39,711 nucleotides of DNA from a virus (IMGVR_UViG_2563366967_000006), one strand, 5' to 3'. Positions 1-39,711 are shown, counted from the first letter of the stretch. The notes: generated by a model not told the origin, from the sequence alone. Numbers and translations: made by a program.

Positions 1-1143
1 CTATGCTGTTTTGATATCTACGATAATCCAGTCTTTACCACGATCATCATTGTATCGGTCGGTCATTTTTCTGGATTTATGGCCTAACAACTTTTGCGTA
101 TCCAGACCCTGTTCCCGATATAACCGTTCTGACAGAGATCGCTGCTCATGAAATGTGGGCGCAGTTCCTTGCTCCCATTTTATGCCACATTTTTCCCGGG
201 CCTTTTTAAAAGCCGTTGTCAGAGTATTTGCAGAAACCTGGTCTCCTCTGTTTGCTTGAGAGGTAGTGTGACGGTAATGGACCAGATATTTACTAACAAC
301 AGCATCCCTGCACTGAGATATAACTTCACGAAGGGTAATATTCAGAGCATCGCATTTCAGGTTAAGCGGAATAGCAAGTTTTGAACCGGTTTTTTCCTGA
401 GTAATGTGCAACATGTCGTCCCATATATCAGAGAATTTCAAATTGCAGATATCGCCTAAACGTTGTCCAGTAACAAGAGCAAGTAGCATGCCGCATTTTA
501 AATAGGGCTGCCGTCTGCTTACGCTGTCAAATATTGCCTGCCATTCGGGCAGTGATAATCTTTGGCGGTTTACTCGATTTCGCGGTTGTTTTGTTGCCTG
601 CGCTGGGTTAAATCCTGGCGGAACATGTCCTGCGTGTTGTGCTTCTTTGAAGACGTCGATTAACACCATTCTCACGACTTGCGCCATCCTGTTATGACCT
701 TCAGCCTTTACAGCATCAATTATTTCGGCAATATCAAGTGCGGTAATATCCTTGAGGTGTTGTATTCCACAATGCTCACGGAAAAGACGAATGGGTTTGC
801 CTTTTTGCCGATAGGAGTTGGGTCTTAGTTCATTATGTTGCAGCCTGTCCTCCTGGATAGAAATATATTTATCAAGCCATTCTGTCACCGTAATGTCTGA
901 GCGCCTGCCTTTCATTCTTTCCAGACGCTCATTGACGCTTAATATTTGTCGGGTACGTTGTTCAGCAATAATGGTATTTGCTTCAGTAGCAACTTGTTTT
1001 GCTTCATTCTCATCAGTTCCTAAGCTATGAAAACGACCGGATAGTGGATGTTTGTATTGCCAATATACCTTTCCGGTTCGCTTATCTAATTTGCAATATA
1101 AATTGGGTATAGAGATTTTGTGAGATCGGGGTCTAGCAGCCAT
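1..1143 (-). CDS. int: Tyrosine site-specific integrase (lambda Int family)
   Basis: 380-aa ORF; C-terminal block ...TFHEQRSLSERLY...LLGHKSRKMTDRYNDDRGKDW resembles the lambda Int catalytic region (R..H..Y). Overlaps the xis start, as is typical for int-xis. Confidence 0.9.
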   Translation of the reverse strand: MAARPRSHKISIPNLYCKLDKRTGKVYWQYKHPLSGRFHSLGTDENEAKQVATEANTIIAEQRTRQILSVNERLERMKGRRSDITVTEWLDKYISIQEDRLQHNELRPNSYRQKGKPIRLFREHCGIQHLKDITALDIAEIIDAVKAEGHNRMAQVVRMVLIDVFKEAQHAGHVPPGFNPAQATKQPRNRVNRQRLSLPEWQAIFDSVSRRQPYLKCGMLLALVTGQRLGDICNLKFSDIWDDMLHITQEKTGSKLAIPLNLKCDALNITLREVISQCRDAVVSKYLVHYRHTTSQANRGDQVSANTLTTAFKKAREKCGIKWEQGTAPTFHEQRSLSERLYREQGLDTQKLLGHKSRKMTDRYNDDRGKDWIIVDIKTA

Positions 1144-5539: not shown

Positions 5540-6046
5540 TCATTTTAATCTATCAAGGAGTGACTCTCTTTCCTTCTTCTCTGATTCTCTTCGGTTTAAT
5601 AACGCTTTAAACTCTTGAAGCTCAACCATTATTTTATGAACGAATACACTGGTATAGAGAGAAATAAAGAGTAATCCACCTGAAATTTTTAAGACCCTGA
5701 AGAGTAGGGCTTGATCATTTGTGCTTGCTATTAACCCCAAGATTACAAACAAAGTTGAAAATACATAGAAAGCTAATAATAAAACCAATTTCAGTCTCTT
5801 GGATTTGACTATTGGCACTAATCGCCTAACCTCACTAGGGGTTAAAGACGAGTGGTCATTGGCCTCATTTGCCTTAAAAATGGCTTGTATACAATATGAT
5901 AATGGCAATTGCATGAGTCCAACCACAGCCCACGGAGCAGTTAGGACAACACCCGGTGTAATATAGCCCAATGCTGACTTGAACAAAAAGTAACCAGCAA
6001 AATAGAAGACCAACATACCAATAAGGTGGATGATGTTCGATTTCAT
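5540..6046 (-). CDS. Unknown multi-pass membrane protein (168 aa, about 4 hydrophobic segments, charged C-terminal tail), second gene of the cassette in the rexB position
   Basis: Four long hydrophobic stretches followed by a charged tail (RRESEKKERESLLDRLK). Strong RBS (aaaaggaggg) 21 nt after the upstream gene's stop. AT-rich. Confidence 0.8.
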   Translation of the reverse strand: MKSNIIHLIGMLVFYFAGYFLFKSALGYITPGVVLTAPWAVVGLMQLPLSYCIQAIFKANEANDHSSLTPSEVRRLVPIVKSKRLKLVLLLAFYVFSTLFVILGLIASTNDQALLFRVLKISGGLLFISLYTSVFVHKIMVELQEFKALLNRRESEKKERESLLDRLK

Positions 6047-6067: not shown

Positions 6068-7090
6068 TTATTTTGCAACCAATTCTCCGGCATCAAGTTT
6101 TGAGAACAGCCACTTATGCATTTTTAAGAATAAATCATTTTCATCAATAATGCCATTGTTATATTCAACGCTAATTTTTCCGGATAATTTTATCTCTTTT
6201 CCCGTTATTTCCCCACCGCCTTGAAGTTTGATGCTAATATCATCCTCATCTAGATGTCGTAGTGAGGTAGCAATACTGTCTATAACAGCTTGACCGCTAT
6301 CATTTGTTTTTCTGAAGTATGTAATCTCGAGGCTTACTTGTAAATTGGCCTCATCTAATGAATCTTTAATGTTTATATCATTTGCCCAGTTATCGCCAAA
6401 AAATGCTTTTAGTAGCGCACCTCCTTTCCCTATTGGGCGGTATTTTATTGTCTTCACCGAACCATTTGAAAAGGAGGGTGTTTGGTTCTCTGAATTTTTA
6501 ACTTCTGAAGTAATGGGTAATCCACCAATTTTTATGCTCTTGGCTGGTGCTTTCTCCATTTTTTTCATCGTTTCTTCGGATGGCTTATCTTGAAGCATTA
6601 ACACAGATTCTTTTTCATCTGTGAATGTATTAATTAGCCAATTCAAATGCGCCTCAAGCTCCCTTGCTCGAAGCGATGTGGATTGAACGATCATGACATG
6701 GTTGTTTAGTACACCAAAATATAAAATTGAATCTACAAACTCTCTTTTTTTGTCACTACGTTTATCTCCATCAATAATTATATCATTAGACGTGATGGAG
6801 TTAATGTCATAAAATTTAACATTATCACTAAGCTCTAATAGAGACTGGCTTTTGTCTTTTTCAAATAAAACCAGTTGCCCAAAAAGTATAGTTTTGTATG
6901 TGTCGCTTTTATTTAAGAAACGATACCCCGAATTTTCATCTGAAGGTGTTATTTTTTCTTGTCTACTAAGTACTTTTTCTGCAACGCCGCCCTCACCTAT
7001 AATACTAAGTAGTATGTTTTGTAATGATGATTTGCTGTGTGGGATTACTGCTTTTTTATAATGAACGACTTTTTGTCTGTTATCTTTCAT
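6068..7090 (-). CDS. Unknown soluble protein (340 aa), first gene of the cassette in the rexA position
   Basis: ATG at 7090; immediately downstream of cI on the same strand. Lys/Asn/Ser-rich and AT-rich; no P-loop or nuclease motif seen by eye. Confidence 0.8.
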   Translation of the reverse strand: MKDNRQKVVHYKKAVIPHSKSSLQNILLSIIGEGGVAEKVLSRQEKITPSDENSGYRFLNKSDTYKTILFGQLVLFEKDKSQSLLELSDNVKFYDINSITSNDIIIDGDKRSDKKREFVDSILYFGVLNNHVMIVQSTSLRARELEAHLNWLINTFTDEKESVLMLQDKPSEETMKKMEKAPAKSIKIGGLPITSEVKNSENQTPSFSNGSVKTIKYRPIGKGGALLKAFFGDNWANDINIKDSLDEANLQVSLEITYFRKTNDSGQAVIDSIATSLRHLDEDDISIKLQGGGEITGKEIKLSGKISVEYNNGIIDENDLFLKMHKWLFSKLDAGELVAK

Positions 7091-7212: not shown

Positions 7213-7902
7213 CTACCCATGCTTCCTGTAGGTCTGCGGCATGCTCCCAATAACTTTCCCGAAGATAAACACCCGGTTCATCTCGTCTTTCTCAATTGGG
7301 TCCCACGGCGAGTAGCTCTTGTTATCAGAGATAACCAGTAGCTTATCCTTCATCATTTGCAGGCGCTTTACATGGGCTGTGTCGTCGTACAGAAACGCAT
7401 AGATACCATCACCGTCGAAAGATTTAACTGTGATATCAACGAACAGCAGATCACCTGGTTCGATCGTTCCTGACATGCTGTCACCACGCACGTTAATGAT
7501 GCGGATATTTTCCGCCTTCCTACCATCGAACATGTGACGAGCATCGTCAAACGAGTACTCAACCGAGCGTAGAACTTCTACAAACTCACGGTTGATGACT
7601 CCCGGCCCAGCACTGACTTCTATATCAAGAACGTCAATCTTAAAGTATTTGGAATGGCTGACAGTTGATAGTATTGGTTGCACTGTACTGTCTGACATAT
7701 TTCCAACGCCAGAAGATAACCATTCTGCGCGCACACCCAAAGCGTTCGCGATCTCCACGATTTTAGTTGTTTGGTTAGCTTTCCCTGTTTCGATTTTCTG
7801 AATAGCAGCTTGGCTAACCCCGACCAAATCCCCAAGCGCCTTTTGTGTAAGGCCTCGCGCTAATCTGGCTTCTTTAAGTCTTTCTGAGAGTGTTGTTTTC
7901 AT
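7213..7902 (-). CDS. cI: CI-type prophage repressor (HTH plus S24/LexA-like peptidase)
   Basis: N-terminal HTH (LTQKALGDLVGVSQAAIQKIETGK) and C-terminal peptidase-like domain with GDSM. The likely start is the internal ATG at 7902 (MKTTLSERL...); the ORF track extends to 7968. Not lambda cI. Confidence 0.85.
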   Translation of the reverse strand: MKTTLSERLKEARLARGLTQKALGDLVGVSQAAIQKIETGKANQTTKIVEIANALGVRAEWLSSGVGNMSDSTVQPILSTVSHSKYFKIDVLDIEVSAGPGVINREFVEVLRSVEYSFDDARHMFDGRKAENIRIINVRGDSMSGTIEPGDLLFVDITVKSFDGDGIYAFLYDDTAHVKRLQMMKDKLLVISDNKSYSPWDPIEKDEMNRVFIFGKVIGSMPQTYRKHG

Positions 7903-8006
7903 AGTCCAAATGTACAACCAAGGTTTTATTCCATCAAACGAAAATGGTTGTTGACTAAAAACAACCATAGTTTTAATCTTGATTCAAATTAACCACGGAG
8001 GTTGTT
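7903..8006. promoter_or_regulatory. OR/PRM/PR-like divergent operator-promoter region
   Basis: Inverted repeat ATGGTTGTT-7 nt-AACAACCAT at 7944-7968 overlapping a TTGACT -35-like hexamer, plus further ACAACCA/GGTTGTT half-sites near 7914-7925 and 7990-8005; RBS ggagg before the cro-like start. Confidence 0.55.
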
Positions 8007-8237
8007 ATGAACCCAGCTATCAAAACAGCGATCAATATCGTTGGTTCACAAAAGAAACTGGGCGCTGCCTGCGAAGTTTCACAGCAGGCCGTCTATAAGT
8101 GGCTTCACAACAAAGCAAAGGTATCCCCTGAACATGTCGGCAGCATTGTTACGGCTACTGGTGGAGTAGTGAAGGCATACCAGATTCGCCCGGATCTTCC
8201 GAAGTTGTTTCCACACACCGAAAAGAACGCAGCTTAA
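8007..8237 (+). CDS. Cro-like HTH regulator
   Basis: 76-aa ORF divergent from cI with an HTH-like stretch (QKKLGAACEVSQQAVYKW). Confidence 0.7.
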   Translation: MNPAIKTAINIVGSQKKLGAACEVSQQAVYKWLHNKAKVSPEHVGSIVTATGGVVKAYQIRPDLPKLFPHTEKNAA

Positions 8238-8306
8238 ATTTCCATTTCACGCTCTTTAACAATAAGCAATCAACTTAACAGTCAATTCAAACTAAAGGAG
8301 TCAATT

Positions 8307-8846
8307 ATGCAACCACTTACATACCAACAGACTAGCGGATTTAGCCCGACTGCGGTGATAAATCGTTCTCAAACAAAACAGGTGCCAGGCCACGAAAAAA
8401 TCCGTGATGCCGTCCGCGCCTGGTCGGCTGAAGATAATCAGGATGTCGTTGCCACACTCATTGTGAATGAGTATCGGGAGCAGGGCGGCGGCGCCATCGA
8501 TTTCCCTGATGATGTCAGCCGTGCACGCCAGAAGCTGTTCCGCTTCCTCGATAACAAATTCGATTCTGAAAAATACCGAAATAACGTGCGTGAACTGACC
8601 CCGGCAATTCTGGCGGTACTACCGCTGGAATATCGCGGTTACCTGGTTGAGCAGGATAGCTTCATGGCTAGGTTGGCTGAAATGGAAAAGGAACTCAGTG
8701 AGGCAAAACAGGCTGTCATTCTCAACGCACCACGCCACCAGAAACTGAAGGAGATGAGTGAAGGTATTGTGTCGATGTTTCGTGTGGACCCGGATCTGGC
8801 TGGTCCATTGATGGCGATGGTTACCACCATGTTGGGGGCAATATGA
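8307..8846 (+). CDS. CII-position early regulatory protein, possibly YdaT-like
   Basis: 179-aa ORF between the cro-like gene and O; the family name is a tentative recollection (motif PAILAVLPLEYRGY). Confidence 0.55.
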   Translation: MQPLTYQQTSGFSPTAVINRSQTKQVPGHEKIRDAVRAWSAEDNQDVVATLIVNEYREQGGGAIDFPDDVSRARQKLFRFLDNKFDSEKYRNNVRELTPAILAVLPLEYRGYLVEQDSFMARLAEMEKELSEAKQAVILNAPRHQKLKEMSEGIVSMFRVDPDLAGPLMAMVTTMLGAI

Positions 8847-8932
8847 CAGGCTCAGAAATGGCGAAAGCCGGTCTGCGGGAACAGAGCCGACTTTCAGGTG
8901 CAAATCGTAACACACTCATTGCGGGAGGAATT

Positions 8933-9862
8933 ATGGCAAACACTGCTGAGATATTCAATTTTCCAGTGCCGGATGTGGCACAAAAGGAGCCGCGCGTGGC
9001 AGATCTCGATGATGGTTATACGCGCATTGCAAATGAGTTGCTGGAAGCTGTGATGCTGGCCGGATTAACACAGCACCAGCTTCTGGTCTTCCTGGCTGTC
9101 ATGCGCAAAACATATGGCTTTAATAAAAAACTGGATTGGGTGAGCAACGAGCAACTTTCCGAGTTGACCGGGATATTGCCGCACAAGTGTTCTGCTGCAA
9201 AAAGTGTTCTGGTAAAGCGTGGGATTTTTATTCAGAGCGGGCGGAATATCGGCATTAATAATGTGGTCAGTGAATGGTCAACATTACCCGAATCAGGTAA
9301 GAAAAATAAAGTTTACCTGAAAGAGGTAAATTTACCTGAATCAGGTAAGAAAAGTTTACCCAAATCAGGTAAAGACGTTTACCCGAATCAGGTAAACACA
9401 AAAGACAAACTAACAAAAGACAATATAAAACCTTTTTCGTCCGAGAATTCTGGCGAATCCTCTGACCAGCCAGAAAACGATCTTCCTGTGGTGAAACCGG
9501 ATGCTGCAATTCAGAGCGGCAGCAAGTGGGGGACAGCAGAAGACCTGACCGCCGCAGAGTGGATGTTTGACATGGTGAAGACCATCGCGCCATCAGCCAG
9601 AAAACCGAATTTTGCAGGGTGGGCCAACGACATCCGCCTGATGCGTGAGCGTGACGGGCGTAACCATCGCGACATGTGCGTTCTGTTCCGCTGGGCCTGC
9701 CAGGACAACTTCTGGTCCGGTAACGTGCTGAGTCCAGCAAAACTCCGCGACAAGTGGACTCAGCTCGAAATTAACCGCAACAAGCAACAGGCTGGTGTGA
9801 CTGCCAGCAAACCAAAACTCGACCTGACAAACACTGACTGGATTTACGGGGTGGAGCTATGA
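8933..9862 (+). CDS. O: Replication initiator protein O
   Basis: N-terminus resembles lambda O (VADLDDGYTRIANELLEA..., RKTYGFNK...); the gene contains the iteron array. Start taken at ATG 8933 with RBS gggagg; the track ORF begins at 8843. Confidence 0.85.
   Translation: MANTAEIFNFPVPDVAQKEPRVADLDDGYTRIANELLEAVMLAGLTQHQLLVFLAVMRKTYGFNKKLDWVSNEQLSELTGILPHKCSAAKSVLVKRGIFIQSGRNIGINNVVSEWSTLPESGKKNKVYLKEVNLPESGKKSLPKSGKDVYPNQVNTKDKLTKDNIKPFSSENSGESSDQPENDLPVVKPDAAIQSGSKWGTAEDLTAAEWMFDMVKTIAPSARKPNFAGWANDIRLMRERDGRNHRDMCVLFRWACQDNFWSGNVLSPAKLRDKWTQLEINRNKQQAGVTASKPKLDLTNTDWIYGVEL
9284..9397 (+). repeat. Origin iterons (five ~19-bp direct repeats, TTTACCYGAATCAGGTAAR) followed by an A-rich tract
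   Basis: Read directly: ttacccgaatcaggtaag, tttacctgaaagaggtaaa, tttacctgaatcaggtaag, tttacccaaatcaggtaaa, tttacccgaatcaggtaaa, then cacaaaagacaaactaacaaaagacaatataaaa. Confidence 0.8.
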
Positions 9863-10572
9863 AAAATATTGCCGCGCAGATGATTAACTTTGACCGTGAG
9901 CAGATGCGTCGAATCGCCAACAACATGCCGGAACAATACGACGAAAAGCCGCAGGTGCAGCAGGTGGCGCAGATCATCAACGGTGTGTTCAGCCAGCTGC
10001 TTGCGACATTTCCGGCAAGCCTCGCGAACCGCGACCAGAACGAGCTGAACGAAATCCGCCGTCAGTGGGTTATGGCTTTCCGTGAAAATGGAATTACCAC
10101 TATGGAGCAGGTTAACGCCGGAATGCGCGTGGCCCGCCGACAGGAGCGACCATTCCTGCCGTCGCCCGGCCAGTTCGTAGCGTGGTGTAAGCAGAGTGGC
10201 GGGGCGTTAGGTATCACTGTTGACCAAGTCATAACCGAATACTGGGATTGGCGTAATCGTTCCTTCGAATTCACTTCCAGCGAGCATTTCCCGTGGTCAC
10301 AGCCTGTCATGTACCACATCTGCGTCGAACTGCGCCACCGCAGCACAGAGCGCCAGTTAACGCATGGTGAGCTGGCGCGTGAAGCCGGCGATCTGCTGGA
10401 CATGTGGGAGAGGCGCGTCACCGAGGGCAAACCAGTACCGCCTGTGCGCCGGGCGATTGCAGCACCGGCTGCCGAGCATGGCCCGACGCCAATCCAGCTG
10501 CTTCAGGCGAAGTACAACCGCAACAAGTCGAACGGGATGGTGCGAAGTGGTAAAGAAGATAATAAAGAATAA
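9859..10572 (+). CDS. P: Replication protein P (DnaB helicase loader), mosaic
   Basis: N-terminal ~110 aa nearly identical to lambda P (MKNIAAQMINFDREQMRRIANNMPEQYDEKPQVQQVAQIINGVFSQLL...); the C-terminal half differs from lambda P as I recall it. Confidence 0.85.
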   Translation: MKNIAAQMINFDREQMRRIANNMPEQYDEKPQVQQVAQIINGVFSQLLATFPASLANRDQNELNEIRRQWVMAFRENGITTMEQVNAGMRVARRQERPFLPSPGQFVAWCKQSGGALGITVDQVITEYWDWRNRSFEFTSSEHFPWSQPVMYHICVELRHRSTERQLTHGELAREAGDLLDMWERRVTEGKPVPPVRRAIAAPAAEHGPTPIQLLQAKYNRNKSNGMVRSGKEDNKE

Positions 10573-13782: not shown

Positions 13783-14865
13783 TTAGAACTGATAAACCAG
13801 ACCTACAGCGACGATGTCGTCGGTATCAATACCAGCTGTTTTGGTAAACTTACTATCGTCAATTAAGTTGATTTTGTAATCAACAAAAGTGGACATGTTT
13901 TTATTAAAGTAGTAAGTAGCACCGACATCGACATACTTGACTAAGTCTCGGTCACCATGAACACCAAGGTCTTTACCTTTTGACTGAAGGTAAGCAACAG
14001 ATGGACGCAGACCGAAGTCAAACTGATATTGTGCTACTGCTTCAAAGTTTTGTGCTTTGTTTGCAATATGGTTATTACCAAAAACGGTCATATTCTGAGT
14101 TTCAGAATATGTGGTAGCCAGATAGATATTGTTCGCATCATATTTCAGGCCTGCAGCCCATACTTCCGCATTTTTGCCGGAGGCATTGAATTTGCTCTTA
14201 CCATAGGCGACCTGACCGTCAGTGCGATCTGATTTAGCATAGGTTGCACCCACGCCGAATCCTTCATACTCATAAGTAGTGGAGAAACCGAAACCATCAC
14301 CATTGGCTTCAGTTACGTCAGTGCGGTCATTTTTACCCTGATACTGAGCAGCAAAGTTCAGGCCATCGACCAGACCAAAGAAGTCGTTGTTACGATAAGT
14401 TGCAACACCAGTAGTGCGACCAGTCATGAACACATCTGTTTGGGTCCAGGTATCACCACCGAATTCTGGCAGAACGTCAGTCCACGCACCGATGTCGTAT
14501 GCTACACCGTAGTTACGGCCGTAATCGATTGAGCCGTAATCACCAAATTTCAGGCCTGCAAATGCAAGACGGGTTTTGTCTTTGGAAGAACCTTGAGATT
14601 CAGCACGGTTGCCTTTGAATTCATATTCCCACTGACCGAAACCAGTCAGTTGATCGTTGATTTGGGTTTCACCTTTGAAGCCAAGACGGGCATAAGTAGT
14701 ATCACCATCATCTGCATCATTAGAGGAGAAGTAGTGCTTGGCATTAACTTTCCCGTATAGATCCAGCTTGTTACTGTCTTTATTATAAATTTCAGCTGCC
14801 TGAGCAGACATCGCCATCAGTACTGATGCAGCTACAGCAGAAATTGCCACTGTTAATTTTTTCAT
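13783..14865 (-). CDS. nmpC: OmpC-family porin (NmpC-like moron)
   Basis: Signal peptide [23 protein letters not shown] then AEIYNKD...; C-terminal VGLVYQF beta-barrel signature. Start taken at internal ATG 14865; the track ORF runs to 14925. Confidence 0.85.
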
Positions 14866-15453
14866 TGTACGCCCTTTTTTTGAACTATTATTAAAAAATG
14901 ATGTCACTGCGCGATAAATATTCATCTAATCAATGTGATTATTTCAAGATGTAAGTTTTAGTTTCTCATTTAATTTGTGAAGTAGATCTCTATTTTTATC
15001 GGAACCTTTTCTATCTAATCCTATTCATGGCTCTTGTCTGAACAAAAATAAATCTATTAGCTAATTTATATTAATGGCACTTATTTATAAGTGCTCTATA
15101 ATTCTTTAGCTTAATTTAAACAAACTAAAAATAACATCGGAAATTATTAACTGGTTATTTGTTGAAGTTTTCTTATGCATTTGTGGTGGTGTTTTGAACA
15201 CTCGGTGGCATTCTCACAAATATCATTTAGTAGTTTACGTACGTAAAAAATTGGTTATGCTGTTAAGAGTGGTTACTTCGTCACACAGCTTAAACCCGCC
15301 GTCGAGCGGGTTTTTCCATTTTTTGAGTCTCGATATTAGCTGATAACCCAATACCTGAGTTATTCACTGACTCCGAATCTGTTACGTTTCTGCCTTTATT
15401 GCGATACGTAGTATCCCCTTAATTTACACCCGCTTTGTCTGCGAGGTGGGGTT

Positions 15454-33920: not shown

Positions 33921-34618
33921 TGCAGGATATCCGGCAGGAAACACTGAATGAATGCACCCGTGCGGAGCAGTCGGCCAGCGTGGTGCTCTGGGAAATCGAT
34001 CTGACAGAGGTCGGTGGAGAGCGTTATTTTTTCTGTAATGAGCAGAACGAAAAAGGTGAGCCGGTCACCTGGCAGGGGCGACAGTATCAGCCGTATCCCA
34101 TTCAGGGGAGTGGTTTTGAACTGAATGGCAAAGGCACCAGTACGCGCCCCACGCTGACGGTTTCTAACCTGTACGGTATGGTCACCGGGATGGTGGAAGA
34201 TCTGCAGAGTCTGGTCGGCGGAACGGTGGTCAGGCGTAAGGTTTACGCCCGTTTTCTGGATGCGGTGAACTTCGTCAACGGAAACAGTGACGCCGATCCG
34301 GAGCAGGAGGTGATCAGCCGCTGGCGCATTGAGCAGTGCAGCGAACTGAGCGCGGTCAGTGCCTCCTTTGTGTTGTCCACGCCGACGGAAACGGATGGTG
34401 CTGTTTTTCCGGGGCGCATCATGCTGGCCAACACCTGCACCTGGACCTATCGCGGTGATGAGTGCGGTTATAGCGGTCCGGCGGTCGCGGATGAATATGA
34501 CCAGCCGACGTCCGATATCACGAAGGATAAATGCAGCAAATGCCTGAGCGGTTGTAAGTTCCGCAATAACGTCGGCAACTTTGGCGGCTTCCTTTCCATT
34601 AACAAACTTTCGCAGTAA
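33920..34618 (+). CDS. L: Tail tip protein L
   Basis: MQDIRQETLNECTRAEQSASVVLWEIDLTEVGGERYFFCNEQNEKGEPVTWQGRQYQPY… matches lambda gpL. Confidence 0.9.
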   Translation: MQDIRQETLNECTRAEQSASVVLWEIDLTEVGGERYFFCNEQNEKGEPVTWQGRQYQPYPIQGSGFELNGKGTSTRPTLTVSNLYGMVTGMVEDLQSLVGGTVVRRKVYARFLDAVNFVNGNSDADPEQEVISRWRIEQCSELSAVSASFVLSTPTETDGAVFPGRIMLANTCTWTYRGDECGYSGPAVADEYDQPTSDITKDKCSKCLSGCKFRNNVGNFGGFLSINKLSQ

Positions 34619-34623
34619 ATCCC

Positions 34624-35367
34624 ATGACACAGACAGAATCAGCGATTCTGGCGCACGCCCGGCGATGTGCGCCAGCGGAGTCGTGCGGCTTCGTGGTAAG
34701 CACGCCGGAGGGGGAAAGATATTTCCCCTGCGTGAATATCTCCGGTGAGCCGGAGGATTATTTCCGGATGTCGCCGGAGGACTGGCTGCAGGCAGAAATG
34801 CAGGGTGAGATTGTGGCGCTGGTCCACAGTCATCCCGGTGGTCTGCCCTGGCTGAGTGAGGCCGACCGGCGGCTGCAGGTGCAGAGTGATTTGCCGTGGT
34901 GGCTGGTCTGCCGGGGGGCGATTCATAAGTTCCGCTGTGTGCCGCATCTCACCGGGCGGCGCTTTGAGCACGGGGTGACGGACTGTTACACGCTGTTCCG
35001 GGATGCTTATCATCTGGCGGGGATTGAGATGCCGGACTTTCATCGTGAGGATGACTGGTGGCGTAACGGCCAGAATCTCTATCTTGATAATCTGGAGGCC
35101 ACAGGGCTGTATCAGGTGCCGTTGTCATCAGCACAACCGGGCGATGTGCTGCTGTGCTGCTTTGGTTCATCGGTGCCGAATCATGCCGCCATTTACTGTG
35201 GTGACGGCGAGCTGCTGCACCATATTCCTGAACAACTGAGCAAACGAGAGAGGTACACCGACAAATGGCAGCGACGCACACACTCCCTCTGGCGTCACCG
35301 GGCATGGCACGCATCTGCCTTTACGGGGATTTGCAACGATTTGGCCGCCGCATCGACCTTCGTGTGA
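34624..35367 (+). CDS. K: Tail assembly protein K
   Basis: MTQTESAILAHARRCAPAESCGFVVSTPEGERYFPCVNISGEPEDYFRMSPEDW… matches lambda gpK. Confidence 0.9.
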   Translation: MTQTESAILAHARRCAPAESCGFVVSTPEGERYFPCVNISGEPEDYFRMSPEDWLQAEMQGEIVALVHSHPGGLPWLSEADRRLQVQSDLPWWLVCRGAIHKFRCVPHLTGRRFEHGVTDCYTLFRDAYHLAGIEMPDFHREDDWWRNGQNLYLDNLEATGLYQVPLSSAQPGDVLLCCFGSSVPNHAAIYCGDGELLHHIPEQLSKRERYTDKWQRRTHSLWRHRAWHASAFTGICNDLAAASTFV

Positions 35368-35936
35368 AAACGGGGGCTGAAGCCATCCGCGCACTGGCCA
35401 CACAGCTCCCGGTGTTTCGTCAGAAACTGAGCGACGGCTGGTATCAGGTACGGATTGCCGGGCGGGACGTCAGCACGTCCGGGTTAACGGCGCAGTTACA
35501 TGAGACTCTGCCTGATGGCGCTGTGATTCATATTGTTCCCAGAGTCGCCGGGGCCAAGTCAGGTGGCGTATTCCAGATTGTCCTGGGGGCTGCCGCCATT
35601 GCCGGATCATTCTTTACCGCCGGAGCCACCCTTGCAGCATGGGGGGCAGCCATTGGGGCCGGTGGTATGACCGGCATCCTGTTTTCTCTCGGTGCCAGTA
35701 TGGTGCTCGGTGGTGTGGCGCAGATGCTGGCACCGAAAGCCAGAACTCCCCGTACACAGACAACGGATAACGGCAAACAGAACACCTATTTCTCCTCACT
35801 GGATAACATGGTTGCCCAGGGCAATGTTCTGCCCGTTCTGTACGGTGAAATGCGCGTGGGGTCACGCGTGGTTTCTCAGGAGATCAGCACGGCAGACGAA
35901 GGGGACGGTGGTCAGGTTGTGGTGATTGGTCGCTGA
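35265..35936 (+). CDS. I: Tail assembly protein I
   Basis: MAATHTLPLASPGMARICLYGDLQRFGRRIDLRVKTGAEAIRALATQLP… matches lambda gpI. Confidence 0.9.
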   Translation: MAATHTLPLASPGMARICLYGDLQRFGRRIDLRVKTGAEAIRALATQLPVFRQKLSDGWYQVRIAGRDVSTSGLTAQLHETLPDGAVIHIVPRVAGAKSGGVFQIVLGAAAIAGSFFTAGATLAAWGAAIGAGGMTGILFSLGASMVLGGVAQMLAPKARTPRTQTTDNGKQNTYFSSLDNMVAQGNVLPVLYGEMRVGSRVVSQEISTADEGDGGQVVVIGR

Positions 35937-35996
35937 TGCAAAATGTTTTATGTGAAACCGCCTGCGGGCGGTTTTGTCGTTTACGGAGCGTGAGGA

Positions 35997-38900
35997 ATGG
36001 GTAAAGGCAGCAGTAAGGGGCATACCCCGCGCGAAGCGAAGGACAACCTGAAGTCCACGCAGTTGCTGAGTGTGATCGATGCCATCAGCGAAGGGCCGGT
36101 TGAAGGTCCGGTGGATGGATTAAAAAGCGTGCTGCTGAACAGTACGCCGGTGCTGGACACTGAGGGGAATACCAACATATCCGGTGTCACGGTGGTGTTC
36201 CGGGCAGGTGAGCAGGAGCAGACTCCGCCGGAGGGGTTTGAATCCTCCGGTTCCGAGACGGTGCTCGGTACAGAAGTGAAATATGACACGCCGATCACCC
36301 GGACCATCACGTCGGCAAACATTGACCGTCTGCGTTTTACTTTCGGCGTGCAGACACTGGTGGAAACCACCTCAAAGGGGGACAGGAATCCGTCGGAAGT
36401 CCGCCTGCTGGTTCAGATACAGCGTAACGGTGGCTGGGTGACGGAAAAAGACATCACCATTAAGGGCAAAACCACCTCGCAGTATCTGGCCTCGGTGGTG
36501 GTGGGTAACCTGCCGCCGCGCCCGTTTAATATCCGGATGCGCAGGATGACGCCGGACAGCACCACAGACCAGCTGCAGAACAAAACGCTCTGGTCGTCAT
36601 ACACCGAAATCATCGATGTGAAACAGTGCTACCCGAACACGGCACTGGTCGGCGTGCAGGTGGACTCGGAACAGTTCGGCAGTCAGCAGGTGAGCCGTAA
36701 TTATCATCTTCGCGGGCGCATTCTGCAGGTGCCGTCGAACTATAACCCGCAGACGCGGCAATACAGCGGTATCTGGGACGGAACGTTTAAGCCAGCATAC
36801 AGCAACAACATGGCCTGGTGTCTGTGGGATATGCTGACCCATCCGCGCTACGGCATGGGGAAACGTCTCGGTGCGGCGGATGTGGACAAATGGGCGCTGT
36901 ATGTCATCGGCCAGAATTGCGACCAGTCGGTGCCGGATGGCTTTGGTGGCACGGAGCCGCGCATCACCTGTAATGCCTGGCTGACCACACAGCGTAAGGC
37001 GTGGGATGTGCTCAGTGATTTCTGCTCGGCGATGCGCTGTATGCCGGTATGGAACGGACAGACGCTGACATTCGTGCAGGACCGACCATCGGATAAGGTG
37101 TGGACCTATAACTGCAGTAATGTGGTGATGCCGGATGATGGTGCGCCGTTCCGCTACAGCTTCAGCGCCCTGAAAGACCGCCATAATGCCGTTGAGGTGA
37201 ACTGGATTGACCCGGATAACGGCTGGGAGACGGCGACAGAGCTTGTGGAGGACACGCAGGCCATTGCCCGTTACGGTCGTAACGTCACGAAGATGGATGC
37301 CTTTGGCTGTACCAGTCGGGGGCAGGCACACCGCGCCGGGCTGTGGCTGATTAAAACGGAGCTGCTGGAAACGCAGACCGTGGACTTCAGCGTGGGCGCA
37401 GAAGGGCTTCGCCATGTACCGGGCGATGTCATTGAAATCTGCGATGATGACTATGCGGGTATCAGCATCGGCGGGCGCGTGCTGGCGGTGAACAGCCAGG
37501 CGCGGACACTGACGCTCGACCGTGAAATCATGCTGCCATCCTCCGGCACCACGCTGATAAGCCTGGTTGACGGAAATGGCAATCCGGTCAGCGTGGAGGT
37601 CCAGTCCGTCACCGACGGCGTGAAGGTGAAAGTTAGCCGTGTTCCTGACGGCGTTGCCGGATACAGCGTGTGGGGGCTGAAGCTGCCGACGCTGCGCCAG
37701 CGCCTGTTCCGCTGCGTGAGTATCCGTGAGAACGACGACGGCACGTATGCCATCACCGCCGTGCAGCATGTACCGGAAAAAGAAGCCATCGTGGATAACG
37801 GGGCGCACTTTGACGGCGACCAGAGCGGCACGGTGAATGGTGTCACGCCGCCAGCAGTGCAGCACCTGACTGCCGAAGTCACCGCAGACAGCGGGGAGTA
37901 TCAGGTACTGGCCCGCTGGGACACGCCGAAGGTGGTGAAGGGCGTGAGTTTCATGCTTCGCCTGACCGTGGCAGCGGATGACGGCAGTGAGCGGCTGGTC
38001 AGCACAGCCCGGACGGCGGAAACCACATACCGCTTCACACAACTGGCGCTGGGGAACTACAGGCTGACAGTCCGGGCAGTAAATGCGTGGGGGCAGCAGG
38101 GCGATCCGGCATCGGTATCGTTCCGGATTGCCGCACCGGCAGCGCCGTCGCAGATTGAGCTGACACCGGGGTATTTTCAGATAACCGCCACGCCGCATCT
38201 TGCGGTTTATGATCCGACGGTACAGTTTGAGTTCTGGTTCTCGGAAAAGCGGATTGCGGATATCAGGCAGGTTGAAACCACAGCACGCTATCTTGGCACG
38301 GCGCTGTACTGGATAGCCGCCAGTATCAATATCAAACCGGGCCATGATTATTATTTTTACATCCGCAGTGTGAACACCGTTGGCAAATCGGCATTTGTGG
38401 AGGCTGTTGGCCAGCCGAGTGATGATGCATCCGGCTATCTGAATTTTTTCAAAGGAGAGATAGGGAAAACCCATCTGGCTCAGGAGTTGTGGACGCAGAT
38501 TGATAACGGTCAGCTTGCGCCTGACCTGGCTGAAATCAGGACGTCCATTACGGGTGTCAGCAATGAAATCACGCAGACCGTCAATAAGAAACTGGAAGAC
38601 CAGAGTGCAGCGATCCAGCAGATACAGAAGGTTCAGGTTGATACAAATAATAACCTGAACAGCATGTGGGCTGTGAAGCTGCAGCAGATGCAGGACGGAC
38701 GCCTTTATATCGCGGGTATTGGTGCCGGTATTGAGAATACTCCTGACGGTATGCAGAGTCAGGTGCTGCTGGCGGCGGACAGGATTGCGATGATTAATCC
38801 TGCGAATGGCAACACAAAGCCGATGTTTGTTGGGCAGGGCGATCAGATATTCATGAACGAAGTGTTCCTGAAATATCTGACGGCTCCCACCATTACCAGC

Positions 38901-39479
38901 GGTGGCAATCCCCCAACGTTTTCACTGACACCTGATGGTCGACTTTCTGCGAAAAATGCGGATATCAGCGGTAACGTGAACGCGAACTCCGGGACGCTCA
39001 ACAACGTCACGATTAATCAGAACTGTCGGATTCTGGGAAAACTGTCAGCTAACCAGATTGAAGGTGATATTGTCAAAACGGTGGGAAAAGCCTTTCCGAG
39101 AAATGGCAGTTATGCCAGCGGTACAATAACGGTCACTGTGTACGATGACCAGGCTTTTGACCGTCAGATAGTAGTCCCCCCCGTTCTGTTTCGTGGGGGT
39201 AAGCATGAAAACTTCAACAGCAACAACCAACAGTCATACTGGTATTCAACCTGTAAGCTGCAGGTACTGAAGAACGGACAGGAAATCTTTCAGCAACCCG
39301 CGACGGATGTCAGCAGGGTATTTTCATCAGTCATTGATATGCCTGCCGGACACGGCCATGTCACCCTGACTTTCAATGTTTCTTCATATGGTGCTAATAA
39401 CTGGACGCCAACGACCAGTATCAGCGACCTTCTTGTTGTTGTGATGAAGAAATCTACAGCCGGTATCAGTATCAGTTGA
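35997..39479 (+). CDS. J: Central tail fibre / host-specificity protein J, with a divergent C-terminal domain
   Basis: N-terminal ~800 aa nearly identical to lambda J ([34 protein letters not shown]…); from roughly [14 protein letters not shown] onward it departs from the lambda J sequence as I recall it. Confidence 0.95.
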
Positions 39480-39497
39480 ATTTTATAACCCAGATAC

Positions 39498-39526
39498 GGG
39501 CGCCAGAAATGGCGCCTTTTTTATTT
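39498..39526 (+). terminator. Intrinsic terminator after J
   Basis: gggcgcc-agaaat-ggcgcc hairpin followed by ttttttattt. Confidence 0.55.
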
Positions 39527-39537
39527 GTGGAGTGAAT

Positions 39538-39711
39538 ATGGCAGTACAGATTTCAGGCGTGCTGAAAGACGGTGCAGGAAAACCGATACAGAACTGCACC
39601 ATTCAGCTCAAAGCAAAACGTAACAGCACCACGGTTGTGGTGAACACGGTGGCCTCAGAAAATCCGGATGAAGCCGGACGTTACAGCATGGATGTCGAGT
39701 ATGGCCAGTAC
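39538..39711 (+). CDS. stf: Side tail fibre protein Stf, N-terminal fragment (runs off the window)
   Basis: Hand translation MAVQISGVLKDGAGKPIQNCTIQLKAKRNSTTVVVNTVASENPDEAGRYSMDVEYGQY matches the start of lambda Stf; there is no lom between J and stf. Confidence 0.75.
   Translation, partial: MAVQISGVLKDGAGKPIQNCTIQLKAKRNSTTVVVNTVASENPDEAGRYSMDVEYGQY

Follow-up and report, generated by a model that had tools for sequence, protein, structure and literature searches.

The phage 21-type gene J and lom-less J-stf junction in a stretch of viral DNA, and their bearing on receptor use

Results

The window analysed here is the whole of a 39,711-nucleotide stretch of viral DNA (IMGVR_UViG_2563366967_000006). 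Its genes are arranged in prophage order, from an integrase (1-1143, minus strand) through recombination, immunity and replication genes, a porin-moron, and the head and tail genes to stf. Gene J, an intrinsic terminator and the first codons of stf occupy its 3' end (Table 1).

Table 1. Features of the J-stf region; positions are counted from the first nucleotide of the window.
Feature	Position	Strand	Basis or remark
Gene J, encoding a tail tip attachment (central tail fibre) protein of 1160 aa	35997..39479	+	ORF and translation; NCBIfam and Pfam matches
aa 1-805 of J, close to lambda: hub and two FNIII/Ig domains	35997..38411	+	97.1% aa identity to lambda J, no gaps
Block diverging from lambda: 3' third of J and post-J terminator	38412..39520	+	Change point; lambda homology back at 39521
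Alpha-helical shaft region with 28 residues (apparently four heptads) that lambda and 434 lack	38502..38594	+	Alignments
Central straight fibre (beta-prism), aa 872-1000	38610..38996	+	Pfam Phage_Tail_Tip
Receptor-binding domain (RBD), Ig-like, aa 1017-1160	39045..39476	+	Pfam Ig_GpJ_C at aa 1038-1160
Codon I1025	39069..39071	+	I1025T alone adds OmpC use in phage 21 (PMC11336670)
Codon E1071 (GAA), RBD loop	39207..39209	+	K in the experimentally tested phage 21 stock (G18903A)
Intrinsic terminator after J: GGGCGCC-AGAAAT-GGCGCC stem-loop, then T-tract	39498..39527	+	Terminator scan; annotated likewise in phage 21
Empty junction; relatives hold a ~670-bp lom cassette here	39525..39526		Comparison with PhiR70_1
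First 58 codons of stf (side tail fibre); the window ends within the gene	39538..39711	+	DNA ~90% identical to the beginning of lambda orf-401/stf

What kind of protein does gene J encode? The translated product, which ends at a stop codon at 39477-39479, is a lambda-type tip attachment protein: it matches the NCBIfam model lambda_TipJ (NF049904) over its full length (protein residues 1-1160, model positions 1-1163) with 2375.8 bits, above the curated cut-off of 1950. The Pfam domains follow the order FNIII-A_GpJ (residues 86-207), Phage-tail_3 (330-496), Ig_J (610-714), Ig_J_second (716-818), Phage_Tail_Tip (872-1000, E 3e-31) and Ig_GpJ_C (1038-1160, 129 bits against a cut-off of 26.2), which is the lambda-type succession of hub, two FNIII/Ig domains, helical shaft, beta-prism and C-terminal Ig-like RBD. 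The same architecture of hub domains, two FNIII domains, alpha-helical shaft, beta-sheet prism and Ig-like RBD has been described for lambda gpJ, where four bottom loops of the RBD go into the LamB trimer; these loops are named L1-L4 (Ge and Wang, PMC11101478). The position of the gene also fits the lambda type, with the tail genes L, K and I upstream and stf downstream. This gene order is taken from Escherichia virus mEp460_4F5, with which the window is collinear and 97-100% identical over 33997-39711 and in which minor tail, tail assembly (including I), J and tail fibre genes are annotated. As for the far end of the window, its first 25 kb are best matched by other mosaics (PhiR34_1, PhiR47_2) and not by mEp460_4F5.

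Among proteins of known structure, J is closest to A8 gpJ713 (PDB 9wca and 9wcb, E 3e-152), ahead of lambda gpJ713 (E 4e-103). An AlphaFold2 single-sequence model of residues 990-1160 had a mean pLDDT of only 59.6, and the Foldseek search with this low-pLDDT model placed 9wca, 9wcb, 8xck and 8xcj on top with TM ~0.45 and rmsd >15 A. That ranking mirrors sequence and not trustworthy model geometry; we have therefore used the entry descriptions of these matches and left the geometry aside.

J was aligned with lambda J (from NC_001416) using MAFFT, and a two-rate change-point model was fitted by maximum likelihood. Over residues 1-805 the two proteins are identical at 782 of 805 positions without gaps, and over residues 806-1160 at 181 of 322 aligned residues (56.2%), with 38 gapped columns. 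The single change point separates residue 805 from residue 806 (nucleotide 38412) and raises the log-likelihood by 142 over the one-rate model, far beyond chance. The preliminary description, which took the first ~800 residues to be those of lambda and the C-terminal ~350 to differ, is thus borne out by the alignment it had called for. Its start of 38400 agrees with the change point. As a small correction, lambda homology resumes at 39521 (lambda 19633), within the T-tract and ribosome-binding site ahead of stf and directly after the stem of the lambda lom terminator, so that the non-lambda block runs from 38412 to 39520.

The divergent C-terminal part nevertheless remains homologous to lambda J. 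Relative to lambda, the shaft contains an insertion of 28 residues at about residues 836-866, which may represent a lengthening by four heptads. The beta-prism (residues 871-1016) is 64% identical to that of lambda, rising to 85% over residues 945-1005, and in the RBD (residues 1017-1160) identity drops to 45-48%, with three indels in the loops. In the J trimer, the lambda-like first 805 residues make up the tail-tip hub and both FNIII domains; the divergent last 355 residues supply a coiled-coil shaft, apparently longer by four heptads than that of lambda, followed by the beta-prism fibre and the Ig-like RBD.

Downstream of J, the single terminator between J and stf consists of an 8-bp stem at 39498-39517 followed by TTTTTATTTG. 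The spacer from the J stop codon to the stf ATG at 39538 is 58 nt long, holds no ORF, and includes a GGAG ribosome-binding site at 39529-39532. We detected no Lom homologue anywhere in the window (tblastn with lambda Lom, best E=1.4), and the stretch from the J terminator to stf holds no gene of the Lom/Ail/PagC moron type. Rfam likewise gave zero matches across the whole window, so the J-stf spacer contains no known RNA family. The earlier reading of the order as J, terminator and then stf directly, with lom absent, therefore stands. PhiR70_1 and BP-4795 have a homologous terminator behind J, and there lom comes after it. The corresponding span of PhiR70_1 measures 4387 bp, compared with 3715 bp in the window. 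Its left flank is common to both sequences through TTTTTTATT and its right flank from TGTGGAGTGAATATG; in the window the TTTTTTATT of the post-J terminator is joined straight to TGTGGAGTGAATATG, which in lom-bearing phages comes after the lom terminator. This arrangement amounts to an insertion or deletion of ~670 bp bordered by two terminator T-tracts, the classic moron layout, and lom is an accessory moron that is simply missing at the J-stf junction. Q-modified late transcription presumably reads through the post-J terminator.

Megablast of positions 35997-39711 gave mEp460_4F5 (LR595868) as the top match, with a reported identity of 100.0%; an ungapped comparison revealed a single mismatch, in J (499 of 500 positions identical in the block 37497-37996). 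This phage is described as one that "has not been studied experimentally" (PMC12315714). Phage 21 (OL657228) is 97.9% identical over the same interval, and the identity is unevenly distributed: it is ~95% over the 5' portion of J and essentially perfect from about nucleotide 38067 to the end of the window. From 38400 to 39711 the only difference is an A/G at 38730, which produces I912V, the one residue at which positions 686-1160 of the two proteins differ. By the sequence of its shaft, fibre and RBD, the window J is thus the phage 21 allele, and the two RBDs agree at all 144 residues.

The 3' third of J is a mosaic module, exchanged in patchwork fashion among relatives, with at least three kinds of junction in natural sequences. 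The first lies at about residue 805 (the window against lambda), the second at about residue 950 (Lambda_4C10, which joins a lambda shaft to the RBD of the window), and the third at about residue 1000 (PhiR70_1/A8, in which the shaft of the window carries another RBD). The 28-residue shaft insertion occurs in phage 21, PhiR70_1 and BP-4795 and not in lambda, 434 or Lambda_4C10. Identity to the RBD of the window is 100% for phage 21, 89.6% for BP-4795, 81.9% for A8 gpJ and PhiR70_1, 45% for lambda and 40% for 434. The window RBD therefore does not belong to the A8 type, from which it is separated by 26 substitutions and which PhiR70_1 carries at 100% identity; the long loop at residues 1066-1084 and the last 29 residues are nonetheless identical between A8 and the window.

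The phage 21-type J allele is common. The 144-residue RBD is found at 99% identity or more in 22 phage records, and the RBDs of other phage records form a graded series of ~90, 82, 64, 62, 46 (lambda) and 40% identity. The 1312-bp stretch 38400-39711 matches 270 E. coli records at 99% identity or more, and the 100% matches, among the matches listed, span the whole stretch including the junction. The exact RBD allele occurs together with the empty junction in 15 of 15 IMG/VR contigs, in which stf begins at an equal distance from J and no Lom match is found. Since every contig with the exact allele is lom-less, the lom-less junction is linked to the RBD allele. We considered the alternative that the presence of lom is independent of the J allele and rejected it, given that all 15 exact-RBD contigs lack lom and that lom accompanies related but different RBDs.

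Could J instead belong to a decayed, non-functional prophage, its divergence being the result of drift? The order of the window, from integrase to stf, is indeed that of a prophage, but the ORF of 1160 codons is intact, as are all of its Pfam domains, the allele is 100% conserved across many genomes, and the J sequence is shared with phages that were obtained as virions (mEp460_4F5, the Lambda_ev series and, over the RBD, phage 21). We regard decay as extremely improbable.

Discussion

What is the origin of the J module, and which receptor does it recognize? We read the locus as the phage 21 allele of J and the lom-less J-terminator-stf junction of phage 21, inherited together as one recombinational block. 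Both this allele with its breakpoints and the lom-less junction are already on record, as is the receptor of the type phage; the allele being known and common, the locus matters little as a discovery. Its interest lies in what it says about receptor prediction.

The preliminary description saw modular host-range switching in the replaced C-terminus and the missing lom, and concluded that the phage probably uses a receptor other than LamB. The three kinds of exchange junction uphold the recombinational module. The switch of receptor runs against what has been reported for phage 21, whose RBD is identical. LamB is reported to be its native and sole receptor (OL657228; Borin et al. 2023, bioRxiv 10.1101/2023.04.13.536812), its ancestor is listed as a LamB-only user (Gerbino et al. 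2024, PMC11336670 Table 1), and phage 21 is counted among the LamB-dependent phages elsewhere (PMC12803456). The non-LamB inference fails on its own terms, because LamB binding by this domain, the finding it named as evidence against itself, is what has been reported for phage 21. Our search of the literature for classical, independent evidence of LamB use by phage 21 returned only work of the Meyer laboratory and one citing statement. The missing lom is uninformative on this question, because lom is a separate accessory cassette. We propose that the primary receptor of the window phage is quite likely LamB, as for lambda, because it shares its RBD, residue for residue, with phage 21; the bottom loops of the RBD would then enter a trimeric outer-membrane porin, most likely the maltoporin LamB. 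The side fibre, encoded by an stf that lies mostly beyond the window, could offer a second, independent adsorption target.

The opposing view is that the replaced module retargets the phage away from LamB, with OmpC as the most plausible candidate. The low identity of the RBD to that of lambda (45%) and its three loop indels are consistent with such a change, and OmpC is bound by the A8 RBD (81.9%), the closest one whose complex with a receptor has been solved. The C-terminus of A8 comes from a natural gpJ and was joined to lambda J at residue 964; the chimera uses OmpC to deliver DNA to delta-lamB cells (Brodel et al. 2024, PMC11338833). In addition, a single J change, I1025T, just ahead of the RBD, gives phage 21 the use of OmpC (Gerbino et al. 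2024, PMC11336670). The window J has I1025 and V1026, as does the published phage 21 protein, and by analogy its phage 21-type RBD would stand one mutation from OmpC use. Against retargeting, phage 21 with the identical RBD is reported as LamB-only, delta-lamB hosts resist it until J mutates (Borin et al. 2023; Gerbino et al. 2024, PMC11336670), and A8 differs from the window at 26 of 144 RBD residues. A search of the literature for receptor data on the ECOR-derived PhiR phages found none. On balance, retargeting seems to us improbable.

One observation complicates the comparison with phage 21. The phage 21 stock tested for LamB use differs from the GenBank sequence by G18903A in J (Borin et al. 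2023), a change that maps to codon 1071 and replaces E by K within the loop GGKHENFNS of the RBD, where the window codon is GAA (E). Published LamB dependence was therefore shown on a stock one RBD residue away from the natural allele. E1071 is the natural allele, and K1071 is essentially absent from natural sequences. A 55-mer centred on GAA is present in 1069 of 5426 complete E. coli genomes (about a fifth), 265 of them exact and including Nissle 1917 and the E. coli type strain; its AAA form is found in 2 genomes, at 96% identity. Similarly, a 37-mer with GAA occurs in 15 IMG/VR contigs and its AAA form in zero. In PDB 9wcb, the open state of A8 gpJ bound to OmpC, the position equivalent to 1071 is E.

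The unnatural E1071K of the tested stock thus speaks for retargeting, whereas the papers give no hint that E1071K confers LamB use, and we judge it unlikely that the substitution changes receptor use. It is accordingly doubtful, in our estimation about as doubtful as retargeting itself, that the E1071 RBD is less than strictly LamB-specific, using OmpC or both porins natively, and that the LamB-only phenotype of phage 21 stems in part from E1071K. If this were true, the preliminary description would have guessed the receptor correctly by accident, and the literature would assign the wrong receptor to a very common prophage J allele. Less probable again is that the natural E1071 allele is natively dual, recognizing both LamB and OmpC, perhaps through conformational heterogeneity of the trimer as in evolved phage 21. 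Evolved phage 21 variants do use LamB and OmpC from one genotype, and the allele is intermediate in sequence between LamB-using and OmpC-using relatives; the phage 21 ancestor, however, was scored as single-receptor (PMC11336670). Use of LamB remains our preferred reading, and E1071K, by which the tested stock departs from the natural allele, is a minor but tangible loose end where phage 21 serves as a model of receptor evolution.

More generally, RBD divergence fails to predict the receptor in the J family. The RBDs of lambda and phage 21 (45% identity) differ in loop lengths and have LamB dependence in common, while those of the phage 21 and A8 types (82%) are assigned to different porins, LamB for the first and OmpC for the second. 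Divergence at the C-terminus of J is for this reason no evidence of a receptor switch. We suggest that the phage 21-type J is best regarded as a calibration case for inferring host range from sequence.

Finally, the locus can be placed among known systems. Phage 21 is the closest of those with receptor data: its J (CPT_21_21, UMO75436.1, OL657228) is also 1160 residues long and differs at 18 residues, one of which (I912V) lies after residue 685. Its terminator, 58-nt spacer and stf start are identical to those of the window, its record gives the order central tail fibre, terminator, ribosome-binding site and side tail fibre without lom, and its "side tail fiber" is annotated at the position matching stf here. 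It differs in the N-terminal two thirds of J, ~95% identical in DNA, and the remaining genome is a different mosaic. Lambda_4C10 has a J of lambda length (1132 residues) with a lambda shaft that goes over to the allele of the window at about residue 950, and it too is without lom. PhiR70_1 and BP-4795 share the long 21-type shaft but carry other RBD alleles (81.9% and 89.6% identical, respectively) and a lom gene. PhiR70_1 is the natural counterpart of A8; it shares the post-J terminator with the window and has its lom cassette beyond that terminator. The A8 gpJ chimera (PDB 9wca, closed; 9wcb, with OmpC) shares its RBD sub-family with the window but binds OmpC and not LamB. Lambda J (gpJ, P03749; PDB 8xcj, the gpJ713-LamB complex, and 8iyk) belongs to the same family, with the same domain order and a similar trimeric Ig-like RBD, but its shaft is 28 residues shorter and lom lies between J and stf. 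Likewise, the J of the OmpC-specific phage 434 is lambda-like up to the RBD and has its module boundaries where the window has them, but its RBD is 40% identical, its shaft is of the lambda type, and an Ail/Lom-family gene lies downstream.

Mosaic structure of the window

What does the window share with its relatives beyond the tail tip? The end of the window running from J into stf is nearly identical to mEp460_4F5 (LR595868), while positions 1-25000 find their best match elsewhere, the top records being PhiR34_1 and PhiR47_2 (about 70% coverage, 96-97% identity). The two regions have different best matches, and the window is therefore a separate mosaic; by sequence comparison, it has only the tail-tip end in common with mEp460_4F5 and phage 21 (OL657228) and is otherwise differently assembled.

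Features of the window and of two related records
Feature	Record	Coordinates	Strand	Remarks
Second ORF of pair, 168 aa	window	5540-6046	-	second of pair downstream of repressor
First ORF of pair, 340 aa	window	6068-7090	-	directly downstream of repressor
cI-like repressor	window	7213-7968	-	
General porin gene, 380 aa	window	13783-14925	-	Pfam Porin_1, NCBIfam and PDB matches
Antisense ORF inside J, 625 aa	window	36597-38474	-	ORF scan
Side tail fibre (686 aa), then two small ORFs	L002 (phage 21)	7542-10183		beyond point matching window end
Side tail fibre (686 aa), then two small ORFs	L003 (mEp460_4F5)	7542-10177		beyond point matching window end

The tail-tip end

The G18903A mutation carried by the phage 21 stock of published receptor-evolution work maps to E1071K in a loop of the J receptor-binding domain (window 39207-39209). 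Glu1071 is the natural allele, in 1069 versus 2 E. coli genomes and 15 versus 0 IMG/VR contigs. J also contains an antisense stop-free frame of 774 codons; lambda, 21, 434, and PhiR70_1 have an equivalent frame that is likewise long, at 585-705 codons. Rather than a gene, the frame is probably a by-product of base composition, the third codon positions being GC-rich (GC3 0.66).

Phage 21 and mEp460_4F5, the records having the same J-stf junction as the window, continue past its end. The small ORFs 3' of their side tail fibre encode 92 and 97 aa in phage 21, the second annotated as a putative membrane protein, and 92 and 95 aa in mEp460_4F5. Among the annotations after the fibre in these two stretches, no tfa-type assembly chaperone is recognisable; the side fibre may fold by means of an intramolecular chaperone or a novel helper.

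Accessory genes

The porin gene of the window is a moron of the Lc/NmpC type. Its product matches Pfam Porin_1 (E 2e-151) and scores 521 bits to the NCBIfam 'porin OmpC' subfamily (cut-off 484), and its top PDB matches are OmpC, OmpK36, and OmpK37. Rfam found no IpeX-like or other RNA family near the gene. By changing the OmpC/OmpF surface of the lysogen, the phage-borne porin could affect OmpC-dependent relatives in the same J family.

Finally, the two ORFs downstream of the repressor have no match in Pfam, NCBIfam, or PADLOC and match only PHROGs of unknown function (phrog_3482 and phrog_16807). Located where lambda has rexA/rexB, the two form a candidate prophage-expressed exclusion or defence pair of an uncharacterised kind.
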